Source: an uncultured Planctomycetia bacterium | Lineage (GTDB): Bacteria; Omnitrophota; Gorgyraeia; 2-01-FULL-45-10 | Reading direction: 5' to 3' | DNA length: 44,485 nt | Assembly: GCA_964352425.1 (NCBI GenBank) | Contig: CAYGRZ010000006.1 | Span: 1-44,485 of the forward strand | In this document: positions 13,616-33,300 of the stretch, piece by piece | Numbering within the stretch: position 1 is the stretch's first letter | Layout: each line of letters opens with the position of its first letter | Translations under genes and position numbers: made by a program | The notes under the pieces: model-generated | Told to the model about the DNA's origin: nothing | Database searches by the model: none | What the model saw: only the letters and a program-made list of their open reading frames with translations

Positions 13616-13687
13616 TTACAATATAATCCCACTATCACCCTTTACAAAAATCACCAATCTGCTACAATATCCACATCTATAACTATA

Positions 13688-13732: not shown

Positions 13733-13748
13733 GGAGGAGAGGCTTACC

Positions 13749-14165: not shown

Positions 14166-14166
14166 T

Positions 14167-14598: not shown

Positions 14599-14611
14599 CA
14601 GGAGGGTCGCT

Positions 14612-15010
14612 GTGGGAACATTCATCAAACGAATACTGATCGCAGCCGTCGTCATCGTTGCACTCATCTTCATCTACCGCATCGCATTCGTCAGGACCGT
14701 CAATTATGAGATAGGCGGCATCAAGATACCGTCGAAATATAACGCGCTCACCGGCACAGTCACGCCGATACTGAACTACAAGGGCAGGGACATCAAAAAG
14801 ACCGTCGTGGACCGGAAGGCGGGCAATATAGGCCTGTCCGGCGAAGAGGTGACGCTCGCGCAGTTCAGGTGGGCGTTGTTTGAGCAGTGGGTGAAGGCGC
14901 AGCCGCAATACAGGGGATGGGAATCGAATCCGGTCATATTCAAAAAGGCAAACGACGGCTTCCGTAAGGTGACGGAAGCTTCCGGCACGCAGGTTAAAAT
15001 AGTCAAATAG
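14612..15010 (+). CDS. Hypothetical membrane-anchored protein
   Basis: AGGAGG 6 nt before GTG 14612; N-terminal KR followed by hydrophobic helix ILIAAVVIVALIFIY. Confidence 0.75.
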   Translation: MGTFIKRILIAAVVIVALIFIYRIAFVRTVNYEIGGIKIPSKYNALTGTVTPILNYKGRDIKKTVVDRKAGNIGLSGEEVTLAQFRWALFEQWVKAQPQYRGWESNPVIFKKANDGFRKVTEASGTQVKIVK

Positions 15011-15017
15011 ATTTGTA

Positions 15018-15046
15018 TTTACTCTCTGCCTGCTTAGTAGTATAAT
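15018..15046 (+). promoter_or_regulatory. Putative sigma70 promoter, probably leaderless
   Basis: TTTACT, 17 nt, TATAAT (15041-15046), 8 nt, ATG 15055; no Shine-Dalgarno. Confidence 0.55.
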
Positions 15047-15054
15047 TTTGCCTG

Positions 15055-16605
15055 ATGATTAAGCAGTCCGCACTACCGATCACGCGGGTCGGTTTCGATA
15101 ACGAAAAGTACCTGAAAGAGCAGACCGCCGCGATCGTCGATCGTGCCGATAAATTCGACTCAAAGCTCTACCTCGAGTTCGGCGGAAAGCTCTGCTTCGA
15201 CTACCACGCCGCGCGCGTCCTTCCGGGTTATGACCCCAACGTCAAGATACGCCTCCTGCAGCATCTGAAAGACAAGGTCGAGATCGTGCTGGCCATCTTC
15301 GCGGGCGACATCGAGAAGGGGAGGGTCCGCGGCGACTTCGGCATCACCTACGATGCGGCCACGTTCAAACTGATCGATGACCTCAGGAAGTGGGGCCTCG
15401 ACATATCATCGGTCGTGATAACCAGATTCGCGAACCAGCCGTCGGCGGTCATATTCAAGAACAAGCTCGAGCGCCGCGGCGTCAAGGTCTGCCTGCACTA
15501 TCCGATAGACGGCTACCCGACGAGTGTGGACCACGTGGTCAGCGACAACGGCTTCGGCAGGAACGGTTATATCGAGACGAAGAAACCGATCGTCGTCGTC
15601 ACCGCGCCCGGCCCGAACAGCGGCAAGCTCTCGGTCTGCCTTTCGCAGCTCTACCACGAGCATAAGCGCGGCATCAACGCCGGCTACGCGAAGTTTGAGA
15701 CGTTCCCGATATGGAACCTGCCGCTCAAGCATCCCGTCAATATCGCATACGAGGCAGCGACCGCGGACATCCTCGACTTCAACCTCGTTGACCCGTTCCA
15801 TCTGGCCAAGTACAACGAGACCTCGATAAATTACAACCGTGACGTCGAGTGCTTCCCGATACTAAAGCTCATCCTCACGCGGATACTCGACTCGAGGGCC
15901 GCCGGCCTGCCGGTCTATAATTCTCCGACGGATATGGGCGTCAACCGCGCGGGTTTCGGCATCGTCAATGACGAGGTGGTCTGTGCAGCGTCGAAACAGG
16001 AGTTCATCCGCAGGTACTTCCGCTATAACCAGGAATACGTCCTCGGTATCGAGAAGAAAGAGGCTGTCGATCGCGTCGCGATGCTGATGGAGGAAACGGG
16101 GGTCAAGGTCACCGACAGGGCAGTCGTCGCCGTCGCCAGGAAAGCGGCTGAAGACGCCGAGCGCAACGGAAAGGGGCATGCCGGGATCTTCTGCGGCGCG
16201 GCGCTGCAGCTGAAGGATGGCCTGACCATAACGGGGAAGAACTCGACATTGATGCACGCCGCTTCGAGCCTCATCCTGAACGCCCTCAAGACGCTGGCAA
16301 AATTACCCGACGAAATATTGCTGATATCTCCTCAGATCATCAACCAGATCAACACCCTGAAAGAGGACGTGCTCAAAGGCGAACCCGAAAGCCTCGACCT
16401 CGAAGAGGCGCTCATAGCGCTGTCCATAAGCGCCACCACGAACCATACGGCCGAGCTGGCTATGAAAAAGCTGATCGAACTGCGCGGCTGCGAGATGCAC
16501 ATGACCCACATACCGACGCCGGGGGATGAGGTAGGCCTGAAAATGATAGGCGTAAACCTCACCACCGATGGAAAATTCTCCTCCCACAATCTCTTCATAA
16601 CCTGA
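15055..16605 (+). CDS. DUF1846 / UPF0371 family protein
   Basis: GFDNEKYL, KLYLEFGGKL..DYHAARVLPG, TAPGPNSGK, GYAKFETFPIWNLPLKHPVNIAYEAATAD, SPTDMGVN. Confidence 0.9.
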   Translation: MIKQSALPITRVGFDNEKYLKEQTAAIVDRADKFDSKLYLEFGGKLCFDYHAARVLPGYDPNVKIRLLQHLKDKVEIVLAIFAGDIEKGRVRGDFGITYDAATFKLIDDLRKWGLDISSVVITRFANQPSAVIFKNKLERRGVKVCLHYPIDGYPTSVDHVVSDNGFGRNGYIETKKPIVVVTAPGPNSGKLSVCLSQLYHEHKRGINAGYAKFETFPIWNLPLKHPVNIAYEAATADILDFNLVDPFHLAKYNETSINYNRDVECFPILKLILTRILDSRAAGLPVYNSPTDMGVNRAGFGIVNDEVVCAASKQEFIRRYFRYNQEYVLGIEKKEAVDRVAMLMEETGVKVTDRAVVAVARKAAEDAERNGKGHAGIFCGAALQLKDGLTITGKNSTLMHAASSLILNALKTLAKLPDEILLISPQIINQINTLKEDVLKGEPESLDLEEALIALSISATTNHTAELAMKKLIELRGCEMHMTHIPTPGDEVGLKMIGVNLTTDGKFSSHNLFIT

Positions 16606-16648
16606 TTAACGGATCAAATCTATCCATAAAATCCCATAAATGTGCTTC

Positions 16649-16720
16649 TGTTAGGTAATAAAAAAGCTACATATGTTTCTATTGACTTAACATGATGGTA
16701 TGGTATAATTGTACACATAT
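16649..16720 (+). promoter_or_regulatory. Conserved promoter cassette of giant gene C
   Basis: TTTCTA-TTGACT (16682-16687), 16 nt, TGg-TATAAT (16704-16709), 11 nt, ATG 16721. TTTCTATTGACTTAACATG is identical to the gene B promoter. Confidence 0.75.
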
Positions 16721-19700
16721 ATGTTAAGTAATAGTAAATTTAGGCAGCGGATATTCAAGGTTATTTGTTTAGTATTAGCCTGCGTCCTGATATTAAATGA
16801 TTTAAGTTTTGCCGCGTCTCAAAACGATCAGCATCTCGCCGCTGCCAGCCGCTTCAATTCCATACTCGGTCAAAAGAGGAATAAGCCTTTCGTTGAAGCC
16901 GCAACATTTATGGTCATCTCCTCAATCATCGGCAAATACCTGCGCGACGGTATATCCCAGTACACGTTGATCCCCTGCATCAAACATCGGATATCCAAGA
17001 CCGAGCTTGCATGGGCCAGGGAGAAAGACCCTCTTCTCGCAGGATGCGCTATAGACGAGCTGTCATTCCGCGCGGACGAAAAGGCGTTTTATCTGCCGCT
17101 CTATCGCAGGGACGCGCAGGGAAAGAGAGTAAAGGCGTACGTATATACATTTTTAATCGAGGGCGGGAGCACCGATACAGGTTGGACCATTCCGCTGGGG
17201 AATGGGACGAATGTCTATGTGAAGGTCGACGTAGTGCCGGGATATGAGCCGCCGGTCAGCCGAAAGCAGGCAGTCGAAAAGCCACAGGCAGCCGGCAGCA
17301 ATGTTGTGGCCGCCGACAGGCCCTCCGAGCCTGTAACCATCAGCGCAGCCGGGTTGCAGAACGAGATAGCCGGTATTATCGCATCAGACGGCTATCCGGC
17401 TGACAAAGTGAATCTGCGAGACTTGTTCGCATATGTAAAAGCGCACAATCCCGGAATGGTGCAGCTCGGTACGACAGAGGATGAGAAGCTCGCCATCTTC
17501 TGCCTGGCGATCTGGGGGGGCGGACAGGACACCATACGTTTTTCATTTAAGGAGACGGTGCAGCCATCAGAGATGCAGGATCTCAAACAGGGCCTGATCG
17601 CCGATCTCACCAACGATGCGAAAAAAACCCTGGATAAACTTGAACACGTCGTGCTCCGGTCGGACAGGCGTTGCGCGTTCGCCGTTGCCCAATACTACGG
17701 AGCCGGCAACACGAATATCGCCTCTCTTATGACGTGGTCGCCTCAGAAGGCCAGAGTGGCCCGGGAGTTCTTCGGGCTCTGCGTCGAACCGGAAAAACGG
17801 AGATTCGTCGGGCAATGGGAGAGGGATTACGCAAGGCATCTCTCGGGGATGTCCTCCAGAGAGCTTCAGCGCGAATGGGAGAGGGTCGGCACCATTGCCG
17901 GATATATAAATGACCCGCTCTATCTTCTTTCGGTCAACGATTGCCTGAGCGATACGTTTCAGTTCCTCCATCCGTCTTCTTTCTATGTCTTCGACACGGC
18001 ATCGGACCGCGCGGCGGTCAAACATATCGTATCTTACATCGCAAAGACGGGTATCCTGCTCGAATGGGCGTCCCGCCATTGGGGTCCAAAAGAGGCGGCC
18101 GGCTTTTCATCGCTTCCCCGCACGATAACGCCGAGCCTGAGCTATATCAAAGAAACCATCTTCCCGCGACACCTTGAAGACGGAAGCGAGGTGCCGTTCG
18201 AGAACAGGGTGGCATGCAAAGTCCTCAGCGCTCTGACCGACGCGGATGCGGAGACGATATTGGGCTCAAAGCCGGAAGATAAAGGCCCGAACGTAGCTGA
18301 AAAAGAATTCAACCGCCAGCAGGCGCGCATCTTCAGGGACGGCGGCGACGGGCCGGAGGTAGCCCGTGAAATGTTCGCTCCGGAAAGCGGTCCGCTCCGA
18401 AGCGCCGAAGAAGTATCGCCGGAATTTATCAAAAAAGATAAGCGCGGCAGGATCAGGGCGGTAAAAGACAGGTTCGGGACCGTCTGGGAAGAATACCATT
18501 ACAGAACCTTCCGGAACGTAGTGAAGCTGCGAAATTTAAAGACAGGGAAGATGGATATAAAGGTCAGGTACCCATCCGGAGAAAACGCTATCGAGGCATG
18601 CAAGGTAATGGTGAAGGGCAAATCAGCCGGTTCCGTCGATTATTACACGGACGCCAATACCATAACAACGATCCGTATAAACGACAGGGACAAGGGTGTG
18701 GGAGAAACGGTAGTGAACTGGTTCTTCAAGGCGGCCGAGAGGCGCGGCGCCTCACGCGCGGGGATATCCGGCGTCGCCAATCCTGCGCTCGACCATATAG
18801 GCAGAAAGCTCATAAAAGAACCCGCCAATATGAAGCCTGAAGAGATGGATCCGGCCGCCGTCGAATATGCGGTGATGGGAGCCGACTTTGATCCGTTCAG
18901 AAGTTCCGGAAGCGAACTCGGAACGGTAAAGGTCTCGGACGGCAAGATCGTATCATTCGACCTGCCGGCTCACCTCGTTCCGGCCCTTGACAGAGGAAGG
19001 GTTGTCGTACGCGACCGGACCTCCGGCAAAGAGGCGGATGTCGTAATACTTTACAATAAACAGAAGAGAGAGAATATCCACGGCGCACCGAATCCGATAT
19101 TCCCGGTTCTCCACCCGGACGGAGCGATAGAGCACCGGCAGGAAGGCGGAAAGGCCGATGAAATATCCGGTTCGCCAACGGTGGATGCATCCTCTCCCAT
19201 TACATCCGCCACTCAAGAAGCTAACAAGGCCGAAGAGTATTTTAGCGCGAATGGCCTCACAGGATACCCTGCATTGAAAAAAGCATTTACCTCCGAAGTA
19301 TTGGCTGCGCTCATCGACGACCCCGCGCTGCGGCCCGTGTTCCTGCAGGTGCTGCCACAAGAGAATATGGGGCCGCTCGAAATAGATGAGACAATCACAA
19401 TTGCCGGCAAAGATGTGCGGGATATCCTTGAAGAGCATAGCGTATTCCTGGTCGGCGGCGCCGATACGGCAGAGCGGTTATTGAGAGAGGGCCATAGAAT
19501 AGTAGTAGGCGTTACCGACAAGCCAAGCAGCAAAACGCTTATACCGGTGAATAAGGTAGCCAACGGCAGGCAGGCGTATTTCCCGCTTCCGGACGGCACC
19601 TGGCTTGGGATAAAAGGTGCGGGTCAATTTAACAGTGAAACAGAGCCGCCATTCTATTTCAGGAATCAGGCCGGATACCCCGAAAGGTGGGAGGCTCTCG

Positions 19701-22700
19701 CCTGGAAACAGGAGGCTGAGTCAGCCCAAGAGGCAGCCCGCAAGCTGAAAGGATACAATGCCCGGTTCGCCCAGTATCTCGGTTACAGGCGTATTTATGC
19801 CGCCCCGGACGGCAAAGGCGGTTTTAACAGCACGAACGAGCTTGCATTAGATTCGGGTTACCGAAAATTTTCCGAACCGGTGCTCATATTCAAGCGGGTA
19901 GCATCTCCCCATCGTATTATGAAGATAGCGCAATTACTCGAGGCGGACCCGGGGCTGAAGCGGCTTACGGGAAATATCTCACGCTCCCTTGCCGGCTATG
20001 GCCATCTGCCCGAGGGAACAGTCTTGTCCCCCGACGAGATGATTGTGATGGCCATGCGGGAATTCGGCCGCGAAGAAGCTATCAAGCAAAACCTCAGGAT
20101 GCGCAAATACACGTTACACTCGCAGGACCTTACGTTTGCCGGTGAAGAAGCGGACAATGAGGAATTCTGCAACCTTTCCAGCTATCACGCCTATTTAATG
20201 AGTAGAGGCCTCGTATCCCATAACCTTGATCCGCTCACCATAGGTAACGAATTATACTTACCTATAGAAGTACATGGCCTGCAGGAAAAGCTTGTTACAC
20301 TTATTGAGATGGTGACGGCGGCGCGTTGCTCAGGCTCTCATGATAATGAAAAGGACCTTTTCCCCGAGCCTCTTGAGGCGCTGAAAGCCATGTTCCAGGG
20401 ATACTTCAGAGGTCTGGACGACACGTTTCTGGATTCCTGGACAGTCGAGAATCACAGCGTAGATAGCGAGTATTGGCCTGTGAAGGTCGTGACCGCCGAC
20501 AAGAGGATCGACATCCTTCATCCTAAATACAACGGCATTTCTGCCGCGACAGATCTCAAGCCGTTCGACCAGGCAGCTGCCGACGAGATAGAAGGCATGA
20601 TACAGGCATGGGCAGATGAGGAAGCTGCGAGAAGAAACGCGGGAGCATCGGCATCGGTGGATGGCGGCATGGCCGCGCCGCAAAAAGTCGTGACAGAGAG
20701 CGTCTTCGGGCTGGGGGATTTTGATCCGGAGCATCCGCTGGTGAAGGCGGGACGCATCGCCGGAACGAATGATTACAGGAATATCGGCGGGGTCGATCTC
20801 GTCGAATATGCGAAGAAAATGCGACTGGAGAAGGGTATAAAGAGGATCTATTTCGATCTCGACCTTACCGTATTCCGATCGAAGGGGTATCTGTCCTCAA
20901 GTAAATGGTTCGAGGACGTGTCGCGGGAATACGGCGCGGAACAGGCATTCAAGTGGTGGGGTACTATGGGCCATGAATCGCGGCAGATCAAGAACGGGTT
21001 CTTCTACCGCATTATGGACCCGGCGATACCCGATATGATCCGAGAGCTTCAGAAGGCCGGTTTTGAAGTCGTCGGCCTGACGGCTCGCAATTTCGATAAG
21101 GACGAGTTCCGTACGAAGGATATCCTGAACAAACTCGACGTCTGGCTGAACGATGTCATCTATGCGTCCGGCGCGCCGAAGAAGGGCGAGGTCCTGGATT
21201 CCTACGAAACGAAAAAGGATGGAGAACCGGGAAAAGTTGCGTCGCTCTTTGTAGAGGATTCGTTCAAAAATCTCGAGATGGTGCTCGCGGACAGGGATCA
21301 CATGTACGGCATCCACTATAAAGGGCTCGCGGCAAACGATGAAGACGGGTGGGACTATACGACATATATGGCAAAGGCTGAAGAGGCTCAGGCGAAGGGG
21401 AATACGGGCCATGCGTTTGAATATTATTTCAATGCCGTAGTAAAGATCCTGGAGTTAAAGGGGATCTCGCGCGAAACCGCGTATAAGGAACTCGATAAGA
21501 TCTATCAGAAACTGCGCCTGATGAAAGACGCCAAGCCGGCAGGCTATGACCGCCTCTTTCAGATCGCCGAGATCGCACGTGACGGCAGGTCGTACCTGTT
21601 TCACGACGCCCAGGCCAGGGTTTTGCGTCCTTCTGTATCGGGCGGGGCAGCGCGTACCAGGCCTATAGCCGTGACTGCGGAGGTCGAATCAGGATCGCGC
21701 ACGGTCAAGCTGCGCATCAAGTATACGCCGGTCCTCAAGCCGGACTCAAAGCTATGGCATAGATGGACGACAAAGACGCCAGGCCCCGTCACATATACGC
21801 AGGAGGTCGGATTACTGCCGACATTCACGGGAGTTTCAGGAAATAGTAATGCGCTGGCGATGGAATTTTTCCGGCAACTCATCATAACCGGTATCTTGTG
21901 GAAACGCTCGATACGGGAAGACCTGTTCTTCGCGATAGACGGCAATTACGTCAGGGCCTATACGGGTAAGGCGGCAGCGCACAACATACCGCTCAGCCTT
22001 AAGGCCCAGAAGATCGTCGATAAGCTCGTCCGGAAGACGCCCGAGAGGAATGCCGAGACATACGTTTCCGCGGACGTGACCGGGACCGGAAGGAAGCTCG
22101 TCATCCGCGGAGCCATCGAGGAGAAAGAGGCCGGCAGCCTGGCCAGGGATCTGATGCGGTACCGCCACGCGGAGCTGGAGAAGCTCGGCAATATCGAGGT
22201 GATATTCGCCCGCGGTGATATTTCCGTCGAAAGCGATGTCAAGGACGAGAGGGCCGCTGCAGATGTCCTGGATTTCATAGAAGGATTCTATGAAATCATC
22301 GCCATCTCCGACATCCATGCGGCGGCAAAAGGCCCGGAAGATAATTTCGGCTCCGGGAAGGAAGAGGAGTTGATACGGCTCATAGACCGCGCGGCCGCAC
22401 GACGCTCTCTCATCGTCATAAACGGCGACTTCCTCGAGCTCTGGCAGGAAAAGTACGGCAATATCCGTCGCAAGTACCAGCGCCTTTTTGAGGCGCTACG
22501 GAATGCACGGCGCGTCATATATGTAGCCGGTAACCATGATGCCGCGGTCCTCAAGAGCGCTCATGACGCTGAGCGCGGCAATGCCATGCGGCTTGCGGAA
22601 GAACACAGGATAAACGACGACGATCTCAACGGGGAGCTCAAGGAGCTTCTCAGTCGCCCCGAGGTCAAAGCGGCCTCAGACGACCTTATCAGCCAGAGAT

Positions 22701-25700
22701 TCGGCTTTGCGCTCAGCGAAGATTTCTCCGAAAACGGTATCGTGGTCTCCGGTAAAACATATTATATCGACAGGAAGATACTGGGCCTGAAAAAGGAGCT
22801 TGGGGAAGACCTGGCCGCTTTCATACTGAATAAATCGTTCATGGACATCCAGCAGAACCTCAGCGCCATGATCCCGGTGGACCTGGGACAGAAGGATGAT
22901 AATAACCTCATGAGCGTTGAGATCGTCCCGTACTATCACGACCGTTTCCGGGGGCTCTTCTTTGAGCACGGACACATCCCCGATCCGTTCAATTACCAGA
23001 GTATAGTCGGACGATGCATCGCATGGGCTGTGGGAAAATTTGAAAAGATGGGGTGGAATAATGCTGGGGGCAAGCTCTCAATTGCGCTCGACAAGGTATC
23101 CGCCGTCTTCTCGCTGATCTTCCCCGGCATAGCCACAGGGCCGGTAAAAGCGTATGCCGAGCGCGTCCTGGCGCTGGGAGCGATATTGCGGACGATAGCT
23201 CAAGACCCCGACGGGCGATTGACGATATTCTTCGGCCACACGCACCACGCGGTCGATATCGGTAAAGGGCCTCTTAATACGTTCTCGCTCGCGTTCAATA
23301 ATGCGCAGTACGCGAATACGGGCACCTGGTCGTCGGCGGAGGAAGTACGCAAGCGCCAGACGGTTGCCGAGCGCTGGAAGAAGTCTATCGCGCGGCCCGC
23401 AATGACTGCGCAGGCCGAGCGCCCGCCCGTCTCTGATGCCGACTTCAGCCGGAACAAGAACTGGTACGACATCGACGCGCACGGCACGATAACGCTGCGG
23501 AACGGGTTCCGGGCCATTGAAGAGCATGATTCGGGCCTTGCCGATAAATTGGAGGTGATCGCGGCGCCGCCTGCGCAGGACGAAAAGAGCGGCGTTACGC
23601 GACGGGACTTCCTGAAGGGAACCCTACTGGCGGCGACAGCGCTTGCGATAGGCCTCCCGTCACGAAAGGCGCTGGCGGACGTGCAGGGCGTCCCAAATTC
23701 GCCGAGCATCGTGACGGCCCAGGCGGGTGACAGGCGCCTCTTCATGCGCGACCGGCTGCCGGACGGAAGCCTGACAGACACGTACGGCTTCGTGGCGCGC
23801 GGGGTGAACTGGTCGCCGGCATCGATAGGCATCGATCCTGACTCGAACCCGACAGGATACAGGCAGGAATTCTACAATTGGTATTTGACCGACATCCCAA
23901 AGATGGCTGAGATGGGCGTCAATGTCGTGCGCGTCTATCACGACTTCGGCACCGGTTCCGAAGCGATCGCCATCCTCGATGAATTATATAAACACGGTAT
24001 AAAGGTCATCATGCCGGTCGACTCGCCATATCACGGCAATGTCGCCAACCTAAGCAATGTGAGCGCGGTAGTCAACGCCTATAAAAATCATCCCGCGATC
24101 CTCATGTGGGCTGTCGGCAACGAATGGGACCTGAATTATTATTACGGCACATATACCACGCTGACGGATGCCGCCGCCTTCACCGAAAGCGCTGCCCAGC
24201 TCATAAAGTCGCTCGACGCGAACCATCCGGTTGCAACGCTCATCGGCGACCCTCACATCCCTAAATACAGCGATACTGCGCCGTACCATCCCTTGAGCCA
24301 GGAGGCTTTCCCGTTCCTTGTCGGGCCGTATACGAAAGATATCGTCAATACCATGGCGCCGAGCATCGACGTCTGGGGCCTCAATATCTACCGCAATTCG
24401 AGTTTCACGGACGTCTTCCAGCAGTGGAAGTCGATATCGAACAAGCCGATGTTCATAGGCGAGTTCGGATGCGATGCGTATGACCACCGAGTCACGTCAG
24501 AAAATCAGGCCATGCAGGACGCGATGGACAAAGGGCTTTGGGACGAGGCCTTCTTCGACCTTTCGGCCCTGCGCACCGAAGGCGCCGCTATAGGGGCGCT
24601 GAGGTTCACCTGGAACGACGAGTGGTGGAAGAACGGCACGCCGTCCGCACACTCGATCACTGCAGAGACCAACAGCGGCCAGCCCGACGGATACAATGAC
24701 GAGGAGTGGTTCGGCGTCGTCGATATAAACCGCAACCCGAGGAGCGTCTTCACCTCGATGCAGGACCGCTACCTGATGAAGGCATCGTCGAACGTCGAGA
24801 CGGATGGCCAACCGCTATTGACGGCAGCGTCGCAGCAGGGCGGCTCATGGGTCAAATTCAACATCGGCGCCAAAACGGTTTTTTCGCGCGACGGCGGAAG
24901 CGGCCAGGGTGCACGCGGTGTCAACGTGGCCGTCCTAGACGACTCGACCGGCATCAGGATGAGGGAAGTGCGCTCATTCGATACGTGGAATCCCTACGGC
25001 GGCCCCCACACGCATTTCCAGGCCCTGATCGATTACCTGAACAGCCTCCCGAACGGCGCCGTCATATCGATCGCGATAGGCGACGAGGGCGGATTCGTGA
25101 ATGCGAGCAATCAGCCGTGGAACGAACCGGTCGTTGAGAGCGCATACCAGGCACTCGAAGCGCTCGGCAGCACCATGATACGCAGCGTCGGATACGGCGG
25201 CGGATGGGCGATGATCGCGATAAAGGGCCAGGGAAAGCTCGCAGAAAATTATTCCGCTTCTCATGTGCCGGTCAGCGTCCAGGCGCAACCATCACTTACA
25301 CTCGCTCCTGACCAGGGCAAACGCGACCTGCCGTATCCGCCGGCGAGGATATTGCAAACGCCGTCTCCCCGGAACGGATATGAACTCAGATTTGAAAGCC
25401 GCGACTGGTTTGTATATGAAGTCCAATACACCAGCGACCTGAAAGGAACGTGGCAGACAGCCCAGACCGGCATAGTCGCCTCCGGCACTGTAACGAGCTG
25501 GAATGACCCCGGCCCGACCTATCCCGACACACGCTTCTACAAAGTAATGACTGTAGGCAGTTCGTTTGATCTTCTCGCCGCAAGGTCCGGCGGCCAGCGC
25601 GAAAAATATCTTGCGAAAAGAGGAGCTCCAGGAACGCTTGCTCTCGGGGCAGCGGCGATATCAGCGATATCCGGCGCATCTTCAGAAAATGATGATGCGC

Positions 25701-28700
25701 GCTTGAATGGACGCGGCGACACCGGCCAGGCCGAGGTCTGTCGAAAAATAGCGCACGATGCGAGAGGATTTATCGAGAAGAATAAGCAGGCGTTCTGGGA
25801 CAGGGGATTGAGAATAACCTCATGCGAAAGACATGCCTACGAAGTAAAAAGGCGCCTGGCCGAGAAAGGCATCGGCGCGACGGTGATGCATGGGGTGCGG
25901 GGCGACGAGCATCACGTGTGGGTCCTGACCGATGACGGCTATATTATAGATGCGTATCCCAGAGATAACGGCGCGCCAAGGGTATTCAAGGCGGGGTCTA
26001 TCGACACCGACGAATATAAAGGGAAGGACATCATTAGCGTCGAGTGGGCCCCTCGGGAGATCGACAGGTGGAACGCAGCCGCGGAACGCCTGGCATCTGC
26101 TTCAGCAGGCAGGACGGCTCCGAAAGATGAACTCACATTATTTATGTCCGTTATAGAACTATATGCCCCGGCCGGCCAGCCGCCGGCAGGTTCCGCGGAA
26201 GAAGGGCTGCTCAGGCTCGATCTCGACCAGATGAGGGGGCTGCTCAAGCGGCCGAAGCTTACGTGGGAAGGCCTGAGATCGCTGAAGAGCCGGGCTAACC
26301 GGATGTGGCGCGACCTCGGTTCGCAGCTGCGGCTTTCTACCGATAATATTTTGCATACCGCATCCATAGTTTTCAATGACGATATAAACGCCGGATTCAG
26401 GGAATTCGCCGCCGTCTGCAGGGCAGGTATCGCTTCCTGCAGAAAAGATATAGAAAATGGCAGGTTCGACAGGCCCAGGATAGTTGCTATGCTCGAAGAT
26501 ATACGAAAAGCGCATACAAGACTTTATCTCAACCATCGCAATCAGGGCCCTGCCAACGAACCTTCTCTCGATGCCATTACAGGATTATTCTCTATTTCAT
26601 CTTTTCCGGGACTCGACAAAGCTGATAAGGTTATAGCGCTAAGCGCCATAACCGAATCGGAAAAGTCGCTCGCAGAACTTGAGCGCCTTGCCGACGCGGG
26701 CATGTTCGCGGATTCATGGGATGCGCGTGTAACAAGCGGGGTTTACGACTCTTCGCGCGTACTCGGCGCACAACCTGGCGCGGCGTCCTCAAAATCGACG
26801 CGGCGAGCCTACGAGTACCCGCGCTCGGGCGAGGGCGACGGCCCGGGGATGTTGGACGACATGGCCGAGGCTTCCGTTGAGACGGGCATGTCGTTCGATG
26901 GGCGGAAGAGGGCGGTAACAAAATATATTATGGAGAACGATGAGTCGATGTCGGCGCCTACCGCCGGCCTTAAAGGCGTACTCAAGAAGTACAGCATAAA
27001 GATCGTCCCGGCCAAACGGGGTAAGGGCGGATTGCGCGAACTTGCTGATGCTCTTGCGAAAGACGGGACGCGCCCTCAAAAGAAATTCGTGCCGGAAAAG
27101 ACGGTTGCGCAGGTCAAAGCCGATGCTGCAAAGGTCATTGGCATGGCGCGGGAAGAGATCAACAGATTAAGGACAGAGGCCGGGCTCGCCATGAGCCGGG
27201 AACGATTCGCGGATGCGGCAGCCCTGAATGAAAAGATCGTAGCAGTGACAAAAGAGGCTATTGACCACGCGGATGAACCATCGCTCAAGGACAGGCTGCA
27301 GAAGATGGCAGATTTCCATATCGAAAAAGCTGAAAATGCCAGGCAACTGCAGGTTGCCAAGGATAAGAGGTTGCAGGACAAGCTGAGGAGCGAACAGAAA
27401 GAGGCGTATCAGGAAGCCGAGAGACAAAAGGCGCTTAAGGATGAGGCGGAGAGGGGCCGGCAGGCGAAAGAATGGCAGGAATCACGCCCCGCTCAGGAGC
27501 GGCTGCTCGTAACCAGGAAAACCGAGGTGATCGCGCTTTTCGAAGAAGCCGAATCGCGGTTAAATAGCCTGGACTTCGAAGATTTCCCGGGAATAAATAA
27601 TATACGCGATATACGCGAAGCCGCTTCCGCGATAAAGGCGTTTAAAGAGTTCGGCGAGAAATTTGGGGACGACGCAGTGCTGACGGCCGGCTTCGAAGAG
27701 CTCGAGTCAGTAATACGATCAATAGAGGAGTTATACGCAGAATGGCGTCGGGAGCAGGATGAGCTTATTACCGTCGTGACGATGGACCCGAACGAGCTTC
27801 TCGCGAGGATCGGGTCCGCCAGAGCGAAACTGGCGAAGGGCGAGGCGCTCAAGCCTGAAGAGAGGCTCAAGAGCCTCGAGGACTCTTTCCAGGCAGTAAA
27901 GGCATCTCTGATGGGATCGCTGGAAAAGAGGGAGACATTCACTGATGAGGACGCGAAGGCGATCGACCTGCTTAAACAGATCCAGAAAGAGCTCGCCGCC
28001 GTTTCGGCAGCGGGGAACAGGCGCTTCGGCGGACCGAGCGGCGGGGAGGACTTGAGCTGGCTGTATCCAAAGGCCGCGCCATTCATCACGCCGGACATGG
28101 CCGCGGCAGACCTCCTGCAGGCCCTGCCGGCCGATATCCTGGCGCTCATGCCGGATAATAAGAAGGCGGCGTGGGCGGATCAGATCATCGGGATGCGCGC
28201 GCGGAGAGCTTCCGAAGCTCTCCGGGAAAGGAACGCCGCGCAGACTACTGCCCCGCGGCCGGCAAAAGCGAGAAAGATTACCGCGAGGGAAAATAAGCGC
28301 AGTGAAGCGCGGCATATAACAAAACATTTTGTAAAAGGGCAAAAACTTTACAGGCAGGGACGGACCGCCGAGGCGATCGACGAGTTTGAGACAGTATTCT
28401 CGCTCGCTCCGCAAAATATATGGACTCTCCTCTACCTGGTCCCCGCACTGATCGATGCCGATCGGTTCGATGACGCGCTCATGTATGCCGAAGCGGGCCT
28501 GCATATCCCGGACAGGAGCACACACGGCGCCGGTATGAATAAACCTGAATTTAAGGCGGGCCTCCTCTGCTTTGAGACGCATTGCTACATTCATAAAGGC
28601 GAGTTCAGCAAGGCGATCGAGGCCTGCCGCATGGCATGGAAATTCGACCCGCAGAATGTTGACGTAAGGCGCCACCTTGCGGAGGTGTACCTTGATCAAT

Positions 28701-30346
28701 CCGATACCTTGCGCAATGCCGAACAAGCCGAGGAGAGGCTCACTATGGCGGTAGAGCAGGCCAAGGCAGGGCAGGCGGAGGCGGCGAAGCTTGGGAACGC
28801 GGAAAAACGTGCGGATCTTATCGCAAAATTTAAGACTATCGAAAGAGTGGCGTCGTCCAAGCTCAACAAATTGAAATATAGGTCCGCTTCGGAAGATGCC
28901 GCATCTCAAGAGCAGAGACGCGGCTTTGGGAGAAACGAACCCAGGGAGAAGGATGAGCTCGCGTTATTTATATCCGCCATAGAACTATACGCCCCGGCCG
29001 GACAGCCGCCGGAAGGTTCCGCGGAAGAAGGGCTGCTCAGGCTCGATCTCGACCAGATGAGGGGGCTGCTCAAGCGGCCGAAGCTTACGTGGGAAGGCCT
29101 GAGATCGCTGAAGAGCCGGGCTAACCGGATGTGGCGCGACCTCGGTTCGCAGCTGCGGCTTTCTACCGATAATATTTTGCATACCGCATCCATAGTTTTC
29201 AATGACGATATAAACGCCGGATTCAGGGAATTCGCCGCCGTCTGCAGGGCAGGTATCGCTTCCTGCAGAAAAGATATAGAAAATGGCAGGTTCGACAGGC
29301 CCAGGATAGTTGCTATGCTCGAAGATATACGAAAAGCGCATACAAGACTTTATCTCAACCATCGCAATCAGGGCCCTGCCAACGAACCTTCTCTCGATGC
29401 CATTACAGGATTATTCTCTATTTCATCTTTTCCGGGACTCGACAAAGCTGATAAGGTTATAGCGCTAAGCGCCATAACCGAATCGGAAAAGTCGCTCGCA
29501 GAACTTGAGCGCCTTGCCGACGCGGGCATGTTCGCGGATTCATGGGATGCGCGTGTAACAAGCGGGGTTTACGACTCTTCGCGCGTACTCGGCGCAGTCA
29601 AAGGCCATGGCGCCGAATCGGAAGCATCGCCGGCACCGAAAATGGCAGGCGTCAATCTTAAAAGTTTCAACCCGGAGGTTTCTTCGCCCGATACGCCGAT
29701 GTGGCCCGGCCCGGACGATCTGATAGATCTGCATACCCGAAAAACCGCGAAAGCCGATGCCGCGCGCATCCAGGCCATCAAGTTCACCGATGCGGTCAAG
29801 ATCATGCAAGGGGCGAAGCAGAAAGAGCCGGTCATACTCGCGCTCGGTACCGGCTGGATAAAAGGGCTTTCGTCGGATGACAGTCAACTGCGCGGGGCCT
29901 TGAACGTGCACATATCCCAGATACGCAACTACTGCAATGACCACGGCATCATCTTCATCGATAGGGATGATAGCGCCCTCCTCGCCGAGATCGAAAAGGC
30001 GCGGGCTGCTCACCCCAACGCGCGTGTGGTCGTGCTTGCAAAAGAGGAGACCGTCACCTCGAAAGAGTTCGCGCCCTTGCGCGATAATGAGAAAGCCTTC
30101 TTGGCGGGCGTCAATGCAAGCGGCCTGGACGAGACCTGCTACATGCGCATCACCGAAATGCTGATGATGGCCCTGCGGCTCGGCCTCAGAGACCTGTTCG
30201 TCAACTCAGCTCCGCTCGATTGCCCCGCGGTGAAGGCCGAGGCGATTCAGGCCTTCAGAAATGTGTACAGATTCCTGCCTGCGGCCGAGAAGATACCGGT
30301 CGATACGAAATTCAAAAAGCTCTACCCTGTCGAACAGTTCGCGTAA
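16721..30346 (+). CDS. Giant multidomain protein C (about 4540 aa): signal peptide, GNAT-like, SelO-like (weak), HAD phosphatase, metallophosphoesterase, internal Tat motif + clan-A glycoside hydrolase + ILEI-like domain, transglutaminase-like, duplicated helical domain, coiled coil, TPR-like, conserved C-domain
   Basis: Uninterrupted 13.6-kb ORF. Motifs: DKGVGETVV (about 18690), GRQ..LGIKGAG (about 19565-19623), FDLDLT/LTAR/VEDS (20850-21265), SDIH/NGD/GNHD/EHGH/GHTH/NTGTW (22300-23330), TRRDFLK (23597), AVGNE and IGEFG (24110, 24455), C..HVW..IID (25823-25951). Confidence 0.92.
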   Translation: MLSNSKFRQRIFKVICLVLACVLILNDLSFAASQNDQHLAAASRFNSILGQKRNKPFVEAATFMVISSIIGKYLRDGISQYTLIPCIKHRISKTELAWAREKDPLLAGCAIDELSFRADEKAFYLPLYRRDAQGKRVKAYVYTFLIEGGSTDTGWTIPLGNGTNVYVKVDVVPGYEPPVSRKQAVEKPQAAGSNVVAADRPSEPVTISAAGLQNEIAGIIASDGYPADKVNLRDLFAYVKAHNPGMVQLGTTEDEKLAIFCLAIWGGGQDTIRFSFKETVQPSEMQDLKQGLIADLTNDAKKTLDKLEHVVLRSDRRCAFAVAQYYGAGNTNIASLMTWSPQKARVAREFFGLCVEPEKRRFVGQWERDYARHLSGMSSRELQREWERVGTIAGYINDPLYLLSVNDCLSDTFQFLHPSSFYVFDTASDRAAVKHIVSYIAKTGILLEWASRHWGPKEAAGFSSLPRTITPSLSYIKETIFPRHLEDGSEVPFENRVACKVLSALTDADAETILGSKPEDKGPNVAEKEFNRQQARIFRDGGDGPEVAREMFAPESGPLRSAEEVSPEFIKKDKRGRIRAVKDRFGTVWEEYHYRTFRNVVKLRNLKTGKMDIKVRYPSGENAIEACKVMVKGKSAGSVDYYTDANTITTIRINDRDKGVGETVVNWFFKAAERRGASRAGISGVANPALDHIGRKLIKEPANMKPEEMDPAAVEYAVMGADFDPFRSSGSELGTVKVSDGKIVSFDLPAHLVPALDRGRVVVRDRTSGKEADVVILYNKQKRENIHGAPNPIFPVLHPDGAIEHRQEGGKADEISGSPTVDASSPITSATQEANKAEEYFSANGLTGYPALKKAFTSEVLAALIDDPALRPVFLQVLPQENMGPLEIDETITIAGKDVRDILEEHSVFLVGGADTAERLLREGHRIVVGVTDKPSSKTLIPVNKVANGRQAYFPLPDGTWLGIKGAGQFNSETEPPFYFRNQAGYPERWEALAWKQEAESAQEAARKLKGYNARFAQYLGYRRIYAAPDGKGGFNSTNELALDSGYRKFSEPVLIFKRVASPHRIMKIAQLLEADPGLKRLTGNISRSLAGYGHLPEGTVLSPDEMIVMAMREFGREEAIKQNLRMRKYTLHSQDLTFAGEEADNEEFCNLSSYHAYLMSRGLVSHNLDPLTIGNELYLPIEVHGLQEKLVTLIEMVTAARCSGSHDNEKDLFPEPLEALKAMFQGYFRGLDDTFLDSWTVENHSVDSEYWPVKVVTADKRIDILHPKYNGISAATDLKPFDQAAADEIEGMIQAWADEEAARRNAGASASVDGGMAAPQKVVTESVFGLGDFDPEHPLVKAGRIAGTNDYRNIGGVDLVEYAKKMRLEKGIKRIYFDLDLTVFRSKGYLSSSKWFEDVSREYGAEQAFKWWGTMGHESRQIKNGFFYRIMDPAIPDMIRELQKAGFEVVGLTARNFDKDEFRTKDILNKLDVWLNDVIYASGAPKKGEVLDSYETKKDGEPGKVASLFVEDSFKNLEMVLADRDHMYGIHYKGLAANDEDGWDYTTYMAKAEEAQAKGNTGHAFEYYFNAVVKILELKGISRETAYKELDKIYQKLRLMKDAKPAGYDRLFQIAEIARDGRSYLFHDAQARVLRPSVSGGAARTRPIAVTAEVESGSRTVKLRIKYTPVLKPDSKLWHRWTTKTPGPVTYTQEVGLLPTFTGVSGNSNALAMEFFRQLIITGILWKRSIREDLFFAIDGNYVRAYTGKAAAHNIPLSLKAQKIVDKLVRKTPERNAETYVSADVTGTGRKLVIRGAIEEKEAGSLARDLMRYRHAELEKLGNIEVIFARGDISVESDVKDERAAADVLDFIEGFYEIIAISDIHAAAKGPEDNFGSGKEEELIRLIDRAAARRSLIVINGDFLELWQEKYGNIRRKYQRLFEALRNARRVIYVAGNHDAAVLKSAHDAERGNAMRLAEEHRINDDDLNGELKELLSRPEVKAASDDLISQRFGFALSEDFSENGIVVSGKTYYIDRKILGLKKELGEDLAAFILNKSFMDIQQNLSAMIPVDLGQKDDNNLMSVEIVPYYHDRFRGLFFEHGHIPDPFNYQSIVGRCIAWAVGKFEKMGWNNAGGKLSIALDKVSAVFSLIFPGIATGPVKAYAERVLALGAILRTIAQDPDGRLTIFFGHTHHAVDIGKGPLNTFSLAFNNAQYANTGTWSSAEEVRKRQTVAERWKKSIARPAMTAQAERPPVSDADFSRNKNWYDIDAHGTITLRNGFRAIEEHDSGLADKLEVIAAPPAQDEKSGVTRRDFLKGTLLAATALAIGLPSRKALADVQGVPNSPSIVTAQAGDRRLFMRDRLPDGSLTDTYGFVARGVNWSPASIGIDPDSNPTGYRQEFYNWYLTDIPKMAEMGVNVVRVYHDFGTGSEAIAILDELYKHGIKVIMPVDSPYHGNVANLSNVSAVVNAYKNHPAILMWAVGNEWDLNYYYGTYTTLTDAAAFTESAAQLIKSLDANHPVATLIGDPHIPKYSDTAPYHPLSQEAFPFLVGPYTKDIVNTMAPSIDVWGLNIYRNSSFTDVFQQWKSISNKPMFIGEFGCDAYDHRVTSENQAMQDAMDKGLWDEAFFDLSALRTEGAAIGALRFTWNDEWWKNGTPSAHSITAETNSGQPDGYNDEEWFGVVDINRNPRSVFTSMQDRYLMKASSNVETDGQPLLTAASQQGGSWVKFNIGAKTVFSRDGGSGQGARGVNVAVLDDSTGIRMREVRSFDTWNPYGGPHTHFQALIDYLNSLPNGAVISIAIGDEGGFVNASNQPWNEPVVESAYQALEALGSTMIRSVGYGGGWAMIAIKGQGKLAENYSASHVPVSVQAQPSLTLAPDQGKRDLPYPPARILQTPSPRNGYELRFESRDWFVYEVQYTSDLKGTWQTAQTGIVASGTVTSWNDPGPTYPDTRFYKVMTVGSSFDLLAARSGGQREKYLAKRGAPGTLALGAAAISAISGASSENDDARLNGRGDTGQAEVCRKIAHDARGFIEKNKQAFWDRGLRITSCERHAYEVKRRLAEKGIGATVMHGVRGDEHHVWVLTDDGYIIDAYPRDNGAPRVFKAGSIDTDEYKGKDIISVEWAPREIDRWNAAAERLASASAGRTAPKDELTLFMSVIELYAPAGQPPAGSAEEGLLRLDLDQMRGLLKRPKLTWEGLRSLKSRANRMWRDLGSQLRLSTDNILHTASIVFNDDINAGFREFAAVCRAGIASCRKDIENGRFDRPRIVAMLEDIRKAHTRLYLNHRNQGPANEPSLDAITGLFSISSFPGLDKADKVIALSAITESEKSLAELERLADAGMFADSWDARVTSGVYDSSRVLGAQPGAASSKSTRRAYEYPRSGEGDGPGMLDDMAEASVETGMSFDGRKRAVTKYIMENDESMSAPTAGLKGVLKKYSIKIVPAKRGKGGLRELADALAKDGTRPQKKFVPEKTVAQVKADAAKVIGMAREEINRLRTEAGLAMSRERFADAAALNEKIVAVTKEAIDHADEPSLKDRLQKMADFHIEKAENARQLQVAKDKRLQDKLRSEQKEAYQEAERQKALKDEAERGRQAKEWQESRPAQERLLVTRKTEVIALFEEAESRLNSLDFEDFPGINNIRDIREAASAIKAFKEFGEKFGDDAVLTAGFEELESVIRSIEELYAEWRREQDELITVVTMDPNELLARIGSARAKLAKGEALKPEERLKSLEDSFQAVKASLMGSLEKRETFTDEDAKAIDLLKQIQKELAAVSAAGNRRFGGPSGGEDLSWLYPKAAPFITPDMAAADLLQALPADILALMPDNKKAAWADQIIGMRARRASEALRERNAAQTTAPRPAKARKITARENKRSEARHITKHFVKGQKLYRQGRTAEAIDEFETVFSLAPQNIWTLLYLVPALIDADRFDDALMYAEAGLHIPDRSTHGAGMNKPEFKAGLLCFETHCYIHKGEFSKAIEACRMAWKFDPQNVDVRRHLAEVYLDQSDTLRNAEQAEERLTMAVEQAKAGQAEAAKLGNAEKRADLIAKFKTIERVASSKLNKLKYRSASEDAASQEQRRGFGRNEPREKDELALFISAIELYAPAGQPPEGSAEEGLLRLDLDQMRGLLKRPKLTWEGLRSLKSRANRMWRDLGSQLRLSTDNILHTASIVFNDDINAGFREFAAVCRAGIASCRKDIENGRFDRPRIVAMLEDIRKAHTRLYLNHRNQGPANEPSLDAITGLFSISSFPGLDKADKVIALSAITESEKSLAELERLADAGMFADSWDARVTSGVYDSSRVLGAVKGHGAESEASPAPKMAGVNLKSFNPEVSSPDTPMWPGPDDLIDLHTRKTAKADAARIQAIKFTDAVKIMQGAKQKEPVILALGTGWIKGLSSDDSQLRGALNVHISQIRNYCNDHGIIFIDRDDSALLAEIEKARAAHPNARVVVLAKEETVTSKEFAPLRDNEKAFLAGVNASGLDETCYMRITEMLMMALRLGLRDLFVNSAPLDCPAVKAEAIQAFRNVYRFLPAAEKIPVDTKFKKLYPVEQFA
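26123..26770 (+). repeat. Intragenic direct repeat, copy 1
   Basis: 26188-26770 is identical to 29014-29596 by direct reading; the preceding 65 nt carry 10 substitutions. Confidence 0.95.
28949..29596 (+). repeat. Intragenic direct repeat, copy 2
   Basis: Offset 2826 nt (in frame) from copy 1. Confidence 0.95.
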
Positions 30347-30362
30347 TATGAGTGGGTGCACT

Positions 30363-33300
30363 ATGATGAATCTGACACATATATCCCGGTTACGGCCCAT
30401 GAAGATCATATGCGCTATCATCATCTGCGCTATGATCCTTCCCGACGCTGCATGGTCGGGCGATGGCCATGGTGCACGCGGTTCCGGTCTTGCCGCATAC
30501 TCAGGCTTTCAGAAAGACCCGGTAAATCCGGAAGCGGCAAAATACAGGAAGCTGCTCTATTCAGCCGGCGGCCTCATAAATTCCGTCTGCTGCATAGGAG
30601 ACTATTTTTTCCGGGGGATAGAGGACGGCGCTGAGCCTGCGCGGCTGCTGCGCTACCTCGAGCCCGCGCTGACCGATCTGGGCGGCTCGCTGGAAGCCAT
30701 CGACGTGCCGAACGCGAGATTTGAAAACGGGGCGGTGATAGTGCCGTATGAAAACAGCGGCGAGCTCTATGATATCCATATATCATCAAGGAAAGATCCC
30801 GCAGCAGCCGGCCCCGAATGGACTGTCCTTTCGGATACCGGCAGACTGGGCAAATATGCTGTCAAGGTCATCCATAAAGGAAAGAAGGAAGCCGCGGCGT
30901 TCGTCCCGGCCGATATAGAGCCAAAGGATCCCGGCGCAGACCTCGAAGAAGGCCCGAACGCCGCTCTCATCCCGCAGATCGCGGGCATTCCGCATGACGC
31001 TGCCACAACAGTGGATCCGGCCCGCGCCAACGCCGATACGAACGTCCTTGTTATAGGCGCCGGGAAGATCGGAAGAGGCGTCGTGGGGCAGCTCTTGTCC
31101 GATTCCGGTTACAGGATCACCTTCGTGGATAAAGACGCCGACATTGTTAACGCGTTGCAGAGAAGCAATGCTTACACCATAAACATTTACTCACCTGACG
31201 GCAGGATCAATCAAAAAAGGATAAGCGGGATCGAGGCATTGCACAGGGCACGCGAGGGCGAAATAACGGACGCGATGCTGCGGGCGGACACGGTATTCAT
31301 GTCTGTCTTCGAGGCGGATTTTGATAATGTCGCATCGCTTATAGCACGAGGTATCGAAAAAAGGATCGCCGGTAATATCAAACGGCCAGTCAATGTCGTG
31401 GTCGTTTCCAATAAATTTTCCACTGAGTACATCGTCAGGGAGGCGATACTGCGGAATCTTCCGCCGCTCATCCGAAGAGAGGCGGACGGCCTGCTGGGAG
31501 TCATAGATACGGTGACGTTCAATATAGTCCCGAACGTCCCCGAAGCGGCCCGGAAAATTGACCCCGCATTGATACAGATCGGCAGCGACGCGGGCCTTTT
31601 GGCCGATACGACAAAGTTCAAAGGGCCGCCGATACACGTGGCCGGCATCGAGATGACAGACAACCTTGAGCAGGCGAAGCTGAGGAAGCTTTACACCTAC
31701 AATGGCGCCCATGCCATCTGCGCATACACGGGGTACCTGAAGGGATATGTATATATACAGGATGCTATCAAAGACCCTCTTATCTTAGATCTGGTAAAGG
31801 GATCCCTCGAAGAGATGCGCGGGCTGTTAGGGGCGTGGGACGATTACGATGAGTATATCAAAAAAGTCATTAAAGATTTTTCTGATGAGCACATCCGGGA
31901 TGACGTCTCAAGGGTCGGCCAGGACCCGGCCAGAAAGCTCTCGACGTTTGACCGCCTCGTGGGCCCCGCGAGGCTCGCCATGGCCAATAAAAGGATCCCG
32001 AGCGCATACGCGACCGGCATCGCCGCAGCGCTGCTCTACGATAATCCCGATGACACGCAGGCGCACTATATCCAAAACCGGATGGCCGCCGGGGATCCTG
32101 TAGATGCTGTCATATGCGGCATATGCGGCCTGCATCCGGAAAGCGACGCGCAGCTCATATCGTTGATCAGAGAGAAGATCGACGTCCTACGGAAAGAAAA
32201 AGCAAAAAAGCAGCTCAGGGACATCGCCGCCTCAGGAAGGCCCGATAAGACGGTAAAGGTGACGGGGAGGATACCGCACGATGTGAAGCTCGTGATGTGG
32301 GATTTCGATAACGTCATAGCGGACACCCCTAAATATTACGCGCACGCCACGGCGACAGTCTACTGGAGGATACGGAAAGGGGCGAAGAGAGGGGCCGGCG
32401 CGCCTGCTGACGACCCGATCTTCCAGGAAGGAAAGAAGCTGTATTACGGGTTCCTGCCGGGAAGGGCGACCTATCTGACGATAATGGAGGCAATAAAAAA
32501 AGCGAAAGAGGACGGCAGGCCGGATACAGAGCTTGAAAGCGCGGACGAATATTACCACGAGTTCGAATCTGAAAGAGAGAGGATATTCACTGACCTTACG
32601 CCCTCCGAATTCTTCAACCCCGGTATGAGGGAGCTTATATACACGGTGCGGGCTCTCAACCCCCGGGTTGAATTCTGCGTGAACACCGCCCTCGACCAGA
32701 ATTTTTTCCAACGGCAATTTATGAAACGCGGATTCAGGGGATATTTCAGCGCCGCGCGGGCCCTGACCGGGGAAGAGAGGGCCGGGGATACGATAAATAC
32801 CAATAAGGTGAAAAACGGCATGGCCCTGATCAGGGAACGCGGCCTCGACCCGTCTCAGGTGGTATTCATAGATGATTCATACAAGATCATGAAGATGGTC
32901 AAGGAACAGGTTCCCGGCGCTTTCACTATAGGAGTGTCGACCGATACGGCATCAGGCGAGAAGCTTATCGATGCGGGGGCCGATATCGTCATGACAAGCA
33001 TGAGGCCGACCCCCGACAAACTGATGATGTTCGGAATCAGGCAGGAGAGCACGGGTGATATAAAAAGCGCGGCCAAGGATGTCTATGTGATAAAGTCCGG
33101 AGGAGCCAACCGTCAAACGAAAATAGACCCTCTCTGGGAGGCGCGGTTCAGGAAAAATATCCCCTTCATCATCAAGACGCCCGAAGCAAGGCAAAAACTC
33201 GAAAAGCTCTTTGAGGCGCTGGTGCAGAAGGGGGACATCAGGCCGAATGTCGTCATCAATATTAAGAACTACAGCCCGAACGCCGTCTCCGTGTACATGG

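Follow-up and report, generated by a model that had tools for sequence, protein, structure and literature searches.

How does a complete export precursor come to lie buried in the middle of a giant protein, and is its signal put to use there? The question is posed by a window (the whole stretch of DNA analysed, 44,485 nucleotides of contig CAYGRZ010000006.1, assembly GCA_964352425.1) from an uncultured bacterium of the phylum Omnitrophota, whose genome (G000) is 99.56% complete and comprises 72 contigs and 1.68 Mb. One open reading frame (ORF) of this window, at 16709-30346 on the forward strand, on which all of the window features described below lie, encodes a giant protein that we call protein C, with 4545 codons counted from a TTG at 16709, or 4541 aa from the ATG at 16721 (16721..30346), the frame being open throughout. 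Residues 2297-2951 of the 4545-aa frame make up what we call the cassette: a signal of the twin-arginine (Tat) type, followed by the parts of a predicted glycanase. We consider it highly probable that at the DNA level this is a real capture of a complete secreted-glycanase gene, joined in frame, without a start or a stop, as a cargo unit of protein C. The fuller statement, of a captured gene plus processing of the chain plus Tat export of the product, we advance with somewhat less than even confidence, as the leading reading of the data.

The internal signal occupies positions 23597..23677 (residues 2297-2323) and runs from TRRDFLKG, starting at residue 2297 (nt 23597), to PSRKALA, with a cut predicted before D2324. 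Its T-R-R-D-F-L-K (2297-2303) fits the S/T-R-R-x-F-L-K consensus, its core, GTLLAATALAIGL, has a hydropathy of 2.09 over 12 residues and below 1.2 over 19 residues, and its c-region, PSRKALA, carries basic residues and an A-x-A site (ALA), with D2324 next. A sequence-only reading of this DNA had placed a Tat signal near residue 2290, and this has been borne out at 2297, where TIGR01409, the NCBIfam Tat model, gives the excised segment 22.5 bits (cut-off 16.7, E 1e-4). On full-length protein C the same model gives 18.1 bits, and the Pfam model TAT_signal (PF10518) gives the excised segment 20.1 bits, below its cut-off of 22.7. In the AlphaFold model the signal is a helix of low confidence. Among the signals of the cassette family that were scored with TIGR01409, that of protein C is the best (22.5 bits versus 20.1 and 13.7), none being listed for the homologs P0015 and P0028. 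At residue 2297 of 4545 it is not N-terminal, and its position is exactly that of the N-terminal signals in free homologs. TatC is encoded elsewhere in the genome (199.9 bits).

The signal is followed by a clan GH-A (glycoside hydrolase clan A) catalytic domain of the (beta/alpha)8 type (23693..24775), recognized through a Glyco_hydro_2_C match (31.2 bits on the excised segment, Pfam cut-off 21), an alignment of homologs, an AlphaFold model, and profile and fold searches. The predicted acid/base, Glu2472 (nt 24122-24124), belongs to AVGNE, which begins at residue 2468, and the predicted nucleophile, Glu2585 (nt 24461-24463), to IGEFG, which begins at residue 2583; neither residue varies among the 30 aligned homologs. 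The AlphaFold model of the cassette (mean predicted local distance difference test, pLDDT, 87) shows a TIM barrel, then an ILEI domain rich in beta strands and, at the C-terminus, a beta-sandwich. In a profile search of solved structures the barrel matched the GH158 structure 9oro_A at 1.2e-12, ahead of GH2 and over profile positions 150-222 alone (about 70 residues), and in Foldseek it matched GH2, GH158, and GH157 barrels at E 1e-13 to 1e-15. What the cassette shares with the GH158 endo-beta-1,3-glucanases (PDB 9ORO, 6PAL), with GH157, and with GH2 is the clan GH-A barrel with its NE and E motifs; the sequence match to GH158 is restricted to some 70 residues around the acid/base motif, at an identity of 12-15%, against a Foldseek E of about 1e-14. 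Thus, of the earlier proposal of a clan-A, GH2-like barrel, the clan holds and GH2 specifically does not, the nearest family being GH158 by profile, and GH2, GH157, and GH158 by fold.

The ILEI/FAM3-type domain (24818..25285; RGVNVAVLD at residue 2736) matches PF15711 at 60.1 bits (cut-off 27) over 90 of 90 profile positions, and its profile matches in the Protein Data Bank are the stem domain of POMGnT1, which binds sugar (5ggj, 2.2e-15), and FAM3 proteins. The C-terminal beta-sandwich tail (25343..25561), with YEVQYTSDL at 2903 and RFYKV at 2942, is defined by the AlphaFold model and the alignment of homologs, no Pfam or NCBIfam model having matched it. All five of the motifs read earlier from the sequence (AVGNE, IGEFG, RGVNVAVLD, YEVQYTSDL, and RFYKV) are found where they had been placed. 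The further suggestion that the tail is of a kind typical of the Planctomycetes-Verrucomicrobia-Chlamydiae group finds its sole basis in homologs that end in such a tail, one of them labelled Verrucomicrobiaceae, and finds none in Pfam or NCBIfam. Right behind the RFYKV codons (25541-25556), another frame contains TAA, TGA, and TAG within 13 nt, probably by chance. We read the cassette, from these matches and models, as encoding a predicted secreted clan GH-A glycanase with a putative sugar-binding module, for which a beta-glucan is a reasonable guess as the substrate.

As to the origin of the cassette, 7999 candidate proteins of similar length were scored in a search for relatives, and 223 of them reached E <= 1e-10. 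The free proteins examined (n = 11) are 647-699 aa long and match the segment at 44-54% identity over 92-98% of its length, from the signal to the tail, and therefore we take the segment to be a whole captured gene, as the sequence-only reading had also proposed. Every one of the 11 stops 8-12 residues beyond RFYR[IV], and 10 carry an N-terminal signal-like segment, P0022 being the one without; those of P0015 and P0028 are of the twin-arginine (RR) type and the others of the Sec type. Free relatives with an N-terminal Tat signal, which the same reading had asked for, are thus at hand in P0015 and P0028, and a further homolog, P0073, passes TIGR01409 with 20.1 bits. Some of the free relatives, for example P0015, P0028, and P0019, are labelled in their sources as interleukin-like EMT inducer domain-containing protein. 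These GH-A/ILEI/beta-sandwich proteins have the same order of parts as the cassette and, unlike it, are separate genes with a start and a stop.

Protein C is not the only long protein in which such a unit is found. Among 60 relatives, strong matches to the cassette are present in five genomes, the same-genus genome G001 having none. In genomes G032, G009, and G016 there is no signal and the domains that precede the enzyme are beta-rich or Ig-like, and in G025 an internal Sec-like signal precedes the cassette in a protein of 4983 aa, P0152 (L023, G025:C7, 2083-17034, minus strand). A search among longer proteins produced 29 matches at E <= 1e-30. One of the proteins, P0129, a fragment limited by its contig (2269 aa), possesses an internal RRDFLR signal, the cassette, its tail, and then an acetate kinase (374 bits); another, P0133 (2161 aa), has the full cassette behind an internal Sec-like signal. 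Besides protein C, there are thus three long proteins with an internal cassette and an intact signal, one of the Tat and two of the Sec type. Loss of RRxFLK from fused homologs would have spoken against the sequence-only reading; the RR motif is kept in P0129, and this refutation does not apply. Across the 18 internal copies of a 56-row set, the tail is present in four, all with a signal, and is absent from 14, none of which has a signal.

In a 22-row tree, P0129 (fused, Tat) is the sister of the free protein P0015 with support of 100/100, and P0133 and P0152 (fused, Sec) are nested separately among the free forms of the Sec type; at least four changes between the free and the fused state are needed on the tree. 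Uniting the four fused copies costs 474 log-likelihood units in the approximately unbiased (AU) test (p-AU 4e-48); this group was chosen after a quick tree had been seen, and therefore the formal p-value is weaker than it looks, the effect size not. From these alignments and trees we say that the four captures were, by all appearance, independent. The quick tree of 56 rows places protein C with the Tat clade (SH-aLRT 81) and the careful tree of 22 rows gives it no settled place, and therefore we make no claim of its membership in that clade. Two side observations concern further long proteins. P0152 contains three two-helix membrane hairpin units with the conserved opening H-D/A-F-T/S-A, one of them directly behind its cassette. 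On contig C15 of G000, an ORF of 6544 aa (11065-30696, +) has an internal RR signal at residue 3801 (L026:1-120), with a Met at its start and a lipobox-like L-G-C at its end, followed by a domain without a known family and by two methyltransferase modules; TIGR01409 is absent among the best 25 of the 29 families that this ORF matches.

What use, then, might the internal signal serve? In the reading that we favour, protein C would be a precursor that is cleaved in the cytoplasm, around residues 2270-2296 and 2952-2992 and perhaps through the action of a transglutaminase-like Cys-His-Asp module behind the cassette; the cuts would release an ordinary Tat precursor, the Tat system of the cell itself would export the folded enzyme, and signal peptidase would cleave after ALA2323. 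The candidate protease (25691..26113, some 140 residues) has C3039, H3068/H3069, and D3081, which are conserved in its one relative, from G049. LapG is a protease that cuts a giant adhesin. LapG (PDB 4FGO) and the transglutaminase-like cysteine proteinases have a Cys at the start of a helix and His and Asp on strands, as does the model of the module behind the cassette (pLDDT 75). VIA-align places LapG first among the likenesses of this module (Z 7.5 over 107 residues, in the range that the tool calls common), followed by transglutaminases, N-acetyltransferases, protein glutaminases, and cysteine proteases. The module scores 17.2 bits with PF13471 (Transglut_core3), below the cut-off of 26, Foldseek returned nothing for it at E <= 0.001, the top weak rows being papain-like folds, no stand-alone relatives were found for it among proteins of 86-277 aa, and its Atlas matches below 0.9 are leads only. 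On this weak evidence of sequence and model, the module is a candidate protease, no more.

As to the places of cleavage, R-S-E-x-R occurs 10 times in P0129 and four times in P0133, where it brackets the cassette on both sides and begins at the residue at which the free homologs end. Several points have to be set against processing. The N-terminal leader of protein C alone could export the whole chain, in which case the internal signal would end up outside the membrane, where it would be useless. No junction motif recurs by enrichment of 4- to 6-mers across the genome's 36 ORFs of 1000 aa or more, and R[SA]ExR occurs five times in the 91,470 residues of the genome's long ORFs, about the level of chance by a rough estimate. 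The protease assignment is weak, with Pfam under its cut-off, no Foldseek match, and a common VIA Z. Behind RFYKV, the sequence has diverged from the free-protein consensus. The capture is not datable, the same-genus genome G001 lacking the cassette and, at the locus that was inspected, any ortholog of protein C, and the signals may be intact solely because the fusions are young. The late choice of the AU-test group, and the stretch of nt 23552-23658 considered below, belong to the same side of the account. The polyprotein proposed in the sequence-only reading is, with no junction motif and with a sole, weakly supported candidate protease, possible and unproven.

An explanation nearly as likely is that the signal is a relic. 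The entire chain of 4545 residues would be exported by Sec through its leader, the Tat signal would be a linker that has not decayed, and the glycanase would be one domain of a secreted giant; we see this as a real contender that itself falls clearly short of even probability. The leader (16721..16819), with a basic n-region, a hydrophobic core of 12 residues, and then NDLSFA, forms the sole strong peak in the hydropathy profile of protein C (2.42), and its short core and the basic residues before it fit a cleavable signal, one that would leave the remainder of the chain outside. The failure to find a cleavage motif in the long ORFs of the genome and the lack of support for an internal start point the same way. 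The sequences around the cassette in protein C are nearly unique, being matched in two of 41 and four of 41 genomes (G000 counted); such fast turnover of these proteins favours a relic, and therefore the fusion may be young. A preprint of 2026 (10.64898/2026.06.07.730766), in the parts available, likewise takes giants with a signal peptide only as fully secreted. What a relic explains poorly is that all four of the independent whole-cassette fusions keep every signal feature, each matching its own clade in signal type, whereas the 14 domain-style fusions lack both the signal and the tail, and that protein C has the most canonical motif among the family members scored. Moreover, the basic residue in the c-region (PSRKALA) is, by the portions of the literature at hand, a Sec-avoidance feature, which would hinder the passage of this segment through Sec.

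It is also conceivable that the cassette is expressed from within, as a gene inside a gene, a separate transcript or an internal start yielding the Tat precursor; we deem this improbable. The in-frame potential starts upstream of the signal are ATG 23402, TTG 23549, and GTG 23555, of which the last lies 14 codons ahead of the RR, an ordinary length for an n-region, and is overlapped by GGAGGTGA at 23551. However, the GGAG abuts GTG 23555 with zero spacer, the 250 nt upstream contain no promoter-like site, the sole upstream one being at 23274-23302, no terminator-like site is found in 23,000-26,200, the cassette has no stop, so that the product would continue for 1,600 residues, and neither the G025 protein nor P0129 has a Met at the corresponding place. 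GGAGGTGA was considered as a relic of a Shine-Dalgarno site and rejected: this 8-mer occurs twice on the forward strand of the 44-kb window, about the number estimated for chance, and most starts in the window lack such sites. The sequence-only reading had seen no internal start with a ribosome-binding site; an in-frame GTG is in fact present at 23555, with no promoter-like site next to it. A separate observation may be made on the starts in the window: among 13 forward-strand starts, inspected over the 25 nt upstream, five show TATAAT, TACAAT, or TATAAC 3-11 nt ahead of the start codon and only two show GGAG- or AAGGTG-like sites, which hints at many leaderless or short-leader transcripts.

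Still less credible, and very unlikely in our estimate, is the earlier proposal of Tat export of an internal loop, by which the RR segment would be a Tat-dependent membrane helix, the 650-residue cassette would be periplasmic, and the chain would return through a patch at 2972-2990. Internal Tat signals do function in the Streptomyces Rieske protein and in polyferredoxins, and a functional Tat motif off the N-terminus is described for dual Sec/Tat proteins, whose signals are of low hydrophobicity and have basic residues past the core (Tooke et al., 2017, PMC5449189, and PMC13186574, in the parts available). These last two features are present in the signal of protein C, and they are the only ones shared. 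In the known cases, as far as those sources go, the Tat helix is the last one, it comes after an even number of Sec helices, and it precedes a C-terminal cofactor domain, none of which is found in protein C, where a single leader precedes the signal and 1,600 residues follow. The leader is the sole strongly hydrophobic segment, and the patch is too weak to span a membrane. The sequence-only reading had also noted a weakly hydrophobic segment after the cassette, and this patch does exist (residue 2977), its hydropathy of 1.25 over 19 residues (Kyte-Doolittle) being too low for a membrane helix.

Equally improbable is an artefact, either a chimeric contig or errors that erased the stops between three genes. 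In its favour, the ATG-start form of protein C is on record from a single contig, in a protein cluster with no other member, and in the reads searched no read or contig spans nt 23552-23658, the downstream junction being likewise unbridged. Only two runs contain a small share of the window's words, no RNA run being listed among those with matches; X1 unitigs (151 bases) match 22928-23078, 23117-23267, 23403-23551, and 23659-23809 at 99-100%, so that unitigs of another run do match on both sides of the upstream junction. Errors, however, disrupt reading frames and do not open one of 13.6 kb, a free gene inserted into the contig would carry its own start and stop, GC3 (the G+C content of third codon positions) rises smoothly over the upstream junction, and analogous fusions are present in other assemblies (P0129, P0133, and P0152).

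The neighbours of the cassette show how protein C is built. The upstream cargo unit (21626..23518) comprises an extra N-terminal domain and a calcineurin-like metallophosphoesterase (Pfam Metallophos, 7.8e-8); its homologs are 43-45% identical to it and extend over residues 1 to 431-441 of the 451-residue query, and the unit is the body of proteins of about 700 aa and the sole cargo of P0154, a protein with a leader and a tail. Judged by these homologs, the upstream neighbour is a self-contained unit as well, and its natural end lies some 25-30 residues ahead of the RR. Between it and the signal is a linker (23519..23596), which includes the in-frame TTG 23549 and GTG 23555. The cassette is followed by a Gly/Ala/Ser-rich linker (25562..25690), with the weak hydrophobic patch and a pLDDT below 50; the patch, KYLAKRGAPGTLALGAAAISAISGA, was tried as a second relic signal, of the next unit, and discarded, since nothing comparable precedes the G049 homolog of that unit. 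Along the chain, GC3 goes from 0.70 in the upstream unit to 0.73 in the cassette and then to 0.63-0.64 downstream; these values all fall within the range of the genome, and there is no jump at the upstream junction. A repeat module of 219 aa is present in two copies of 97% identity (26123..26779 and 28949..29605) and may be a spacer unit; the first copy shares 35% identity with part of a 3516-aa ORF in G001. BLASTP searches with seven parts of protein C as queries against every ORF in the genome returned solely this internal repeat and one short match.

The end of the chain is a conserved family tail domain (29819..30343), which matches the tail of P0152 (BLASTP, E 4e-5), similar tails being present on the other three large ORFs of the window. 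Both a leader and a similar tail are thus shared by four forward-strand ORFs, at 5639-9487, 9647-13612, 16721-30346, and about 30349-36449. The leader pattern, in which D-[IL]-x-[WF]-A comes after a hydrophobic core, is found in protein C, in the three further ORFs of the window, in P0152, in P0154, and in the 3516-aa ORF of G001, as judged by eye and not by a model. Across the members of this family the enzyme units in the middle vary and the tail is conserved. Protein C thus belongs to a tandem set of four from an Omnitrophota family whose proteins have swappable enzyme units enclosed between a conserved leader and a conserved tail. The fourth ORF begins 3 nt past the stop of protein C and encodes a mannitol dehydrogenase; the G001 member has the repeat module alone in common with protein C and is not syntenic with it. 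The ORF at 9647-13612 has a G+C content of 0.445 and a GC3 of 0.47, versus 0.552 for the genome, and a weak match to CheR-type methyltransferases.

Some of the known systems resemble protein C in part. Flavivirus-type polyproteins consist of complete proteins in one frame, some of which open with an export signal of their own, and have mapped cleavage sites and proteases. Protein C differs from such viral polyproteins in that no site motif was found in it and that its protease is a candidate only. Archaeovorin-type giants (West-Roberts et al., 2023) reportedly have many transmembrane regions as well as a divergent SecA DEAD domain; protein C is unlike them, with one hydrophobic segment and with no SecA family among its Pfam matches at E <= 0.01. 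The closest comparison is with the Omnitrophota giants of two preprints (West-Roberts et al., 2023, bioRxiv 10.1101/2023.11.21.568195; and one of 2026, 10.64898/2026.06.07.730766), which, so far as their available portions go, have the phylum, the multi-enzyme chains, and the ILEI domains in common with protein C. In the available text of the former, cleavage is proposed from the C39 and S8 domains and the cleavage points are stated as lacking information; in that of the latter, signal calls off the N-terminus are treated as artefacts. Neither twin-arginine, nor polyprotein, nor internal signals as real features were found in the available main text of either, nor was "fusion" found in the available text of the earlier preprint or "cleav" in that of the later one. 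A full-text literature search brought up no paper pairing Omnitrophota with polyprotein, and one for a bacterial polyprotein with an internal signal peptide found nothing related.

In conclusion, the data on protein C suggest, and do not prove, that such giant proteins of the Omnitrophota are precursors cut into separately targeted products. Whether these proteins act as single chains or as cut products is a question that the first preprint on the Omnitrophota giants raised, in the text available, and a buried, complete export precursor gives it a sharp test, as an N-terminus at D2324 needs use of the internal signal and would mean a chain that is cut or internally started. A bolder idea, which we regard as rather unlikely though worth stating, is that the Omnitrophota make ordinary proteins as stop-less "gene trains," with protein C a bacterial polyprotein that would be cut inside the cell, perhaps by its transglutaminase-like module, each unit following its own address label and the cassette leaving through Tat as a folded glycanase; in a still bolder variant, the chain would be delivered into prey and the internal signal would use the Tat system of the prey. 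If the signal is a relic, then four independent captures would still show that these giant proteins grow by taking up entire genes from their neighbourhood. If processing is true, protein C would be a cellular counterpart of the viral polyproteins, one giant ORF would equal many proteins, and the annotation of such genomes would change.

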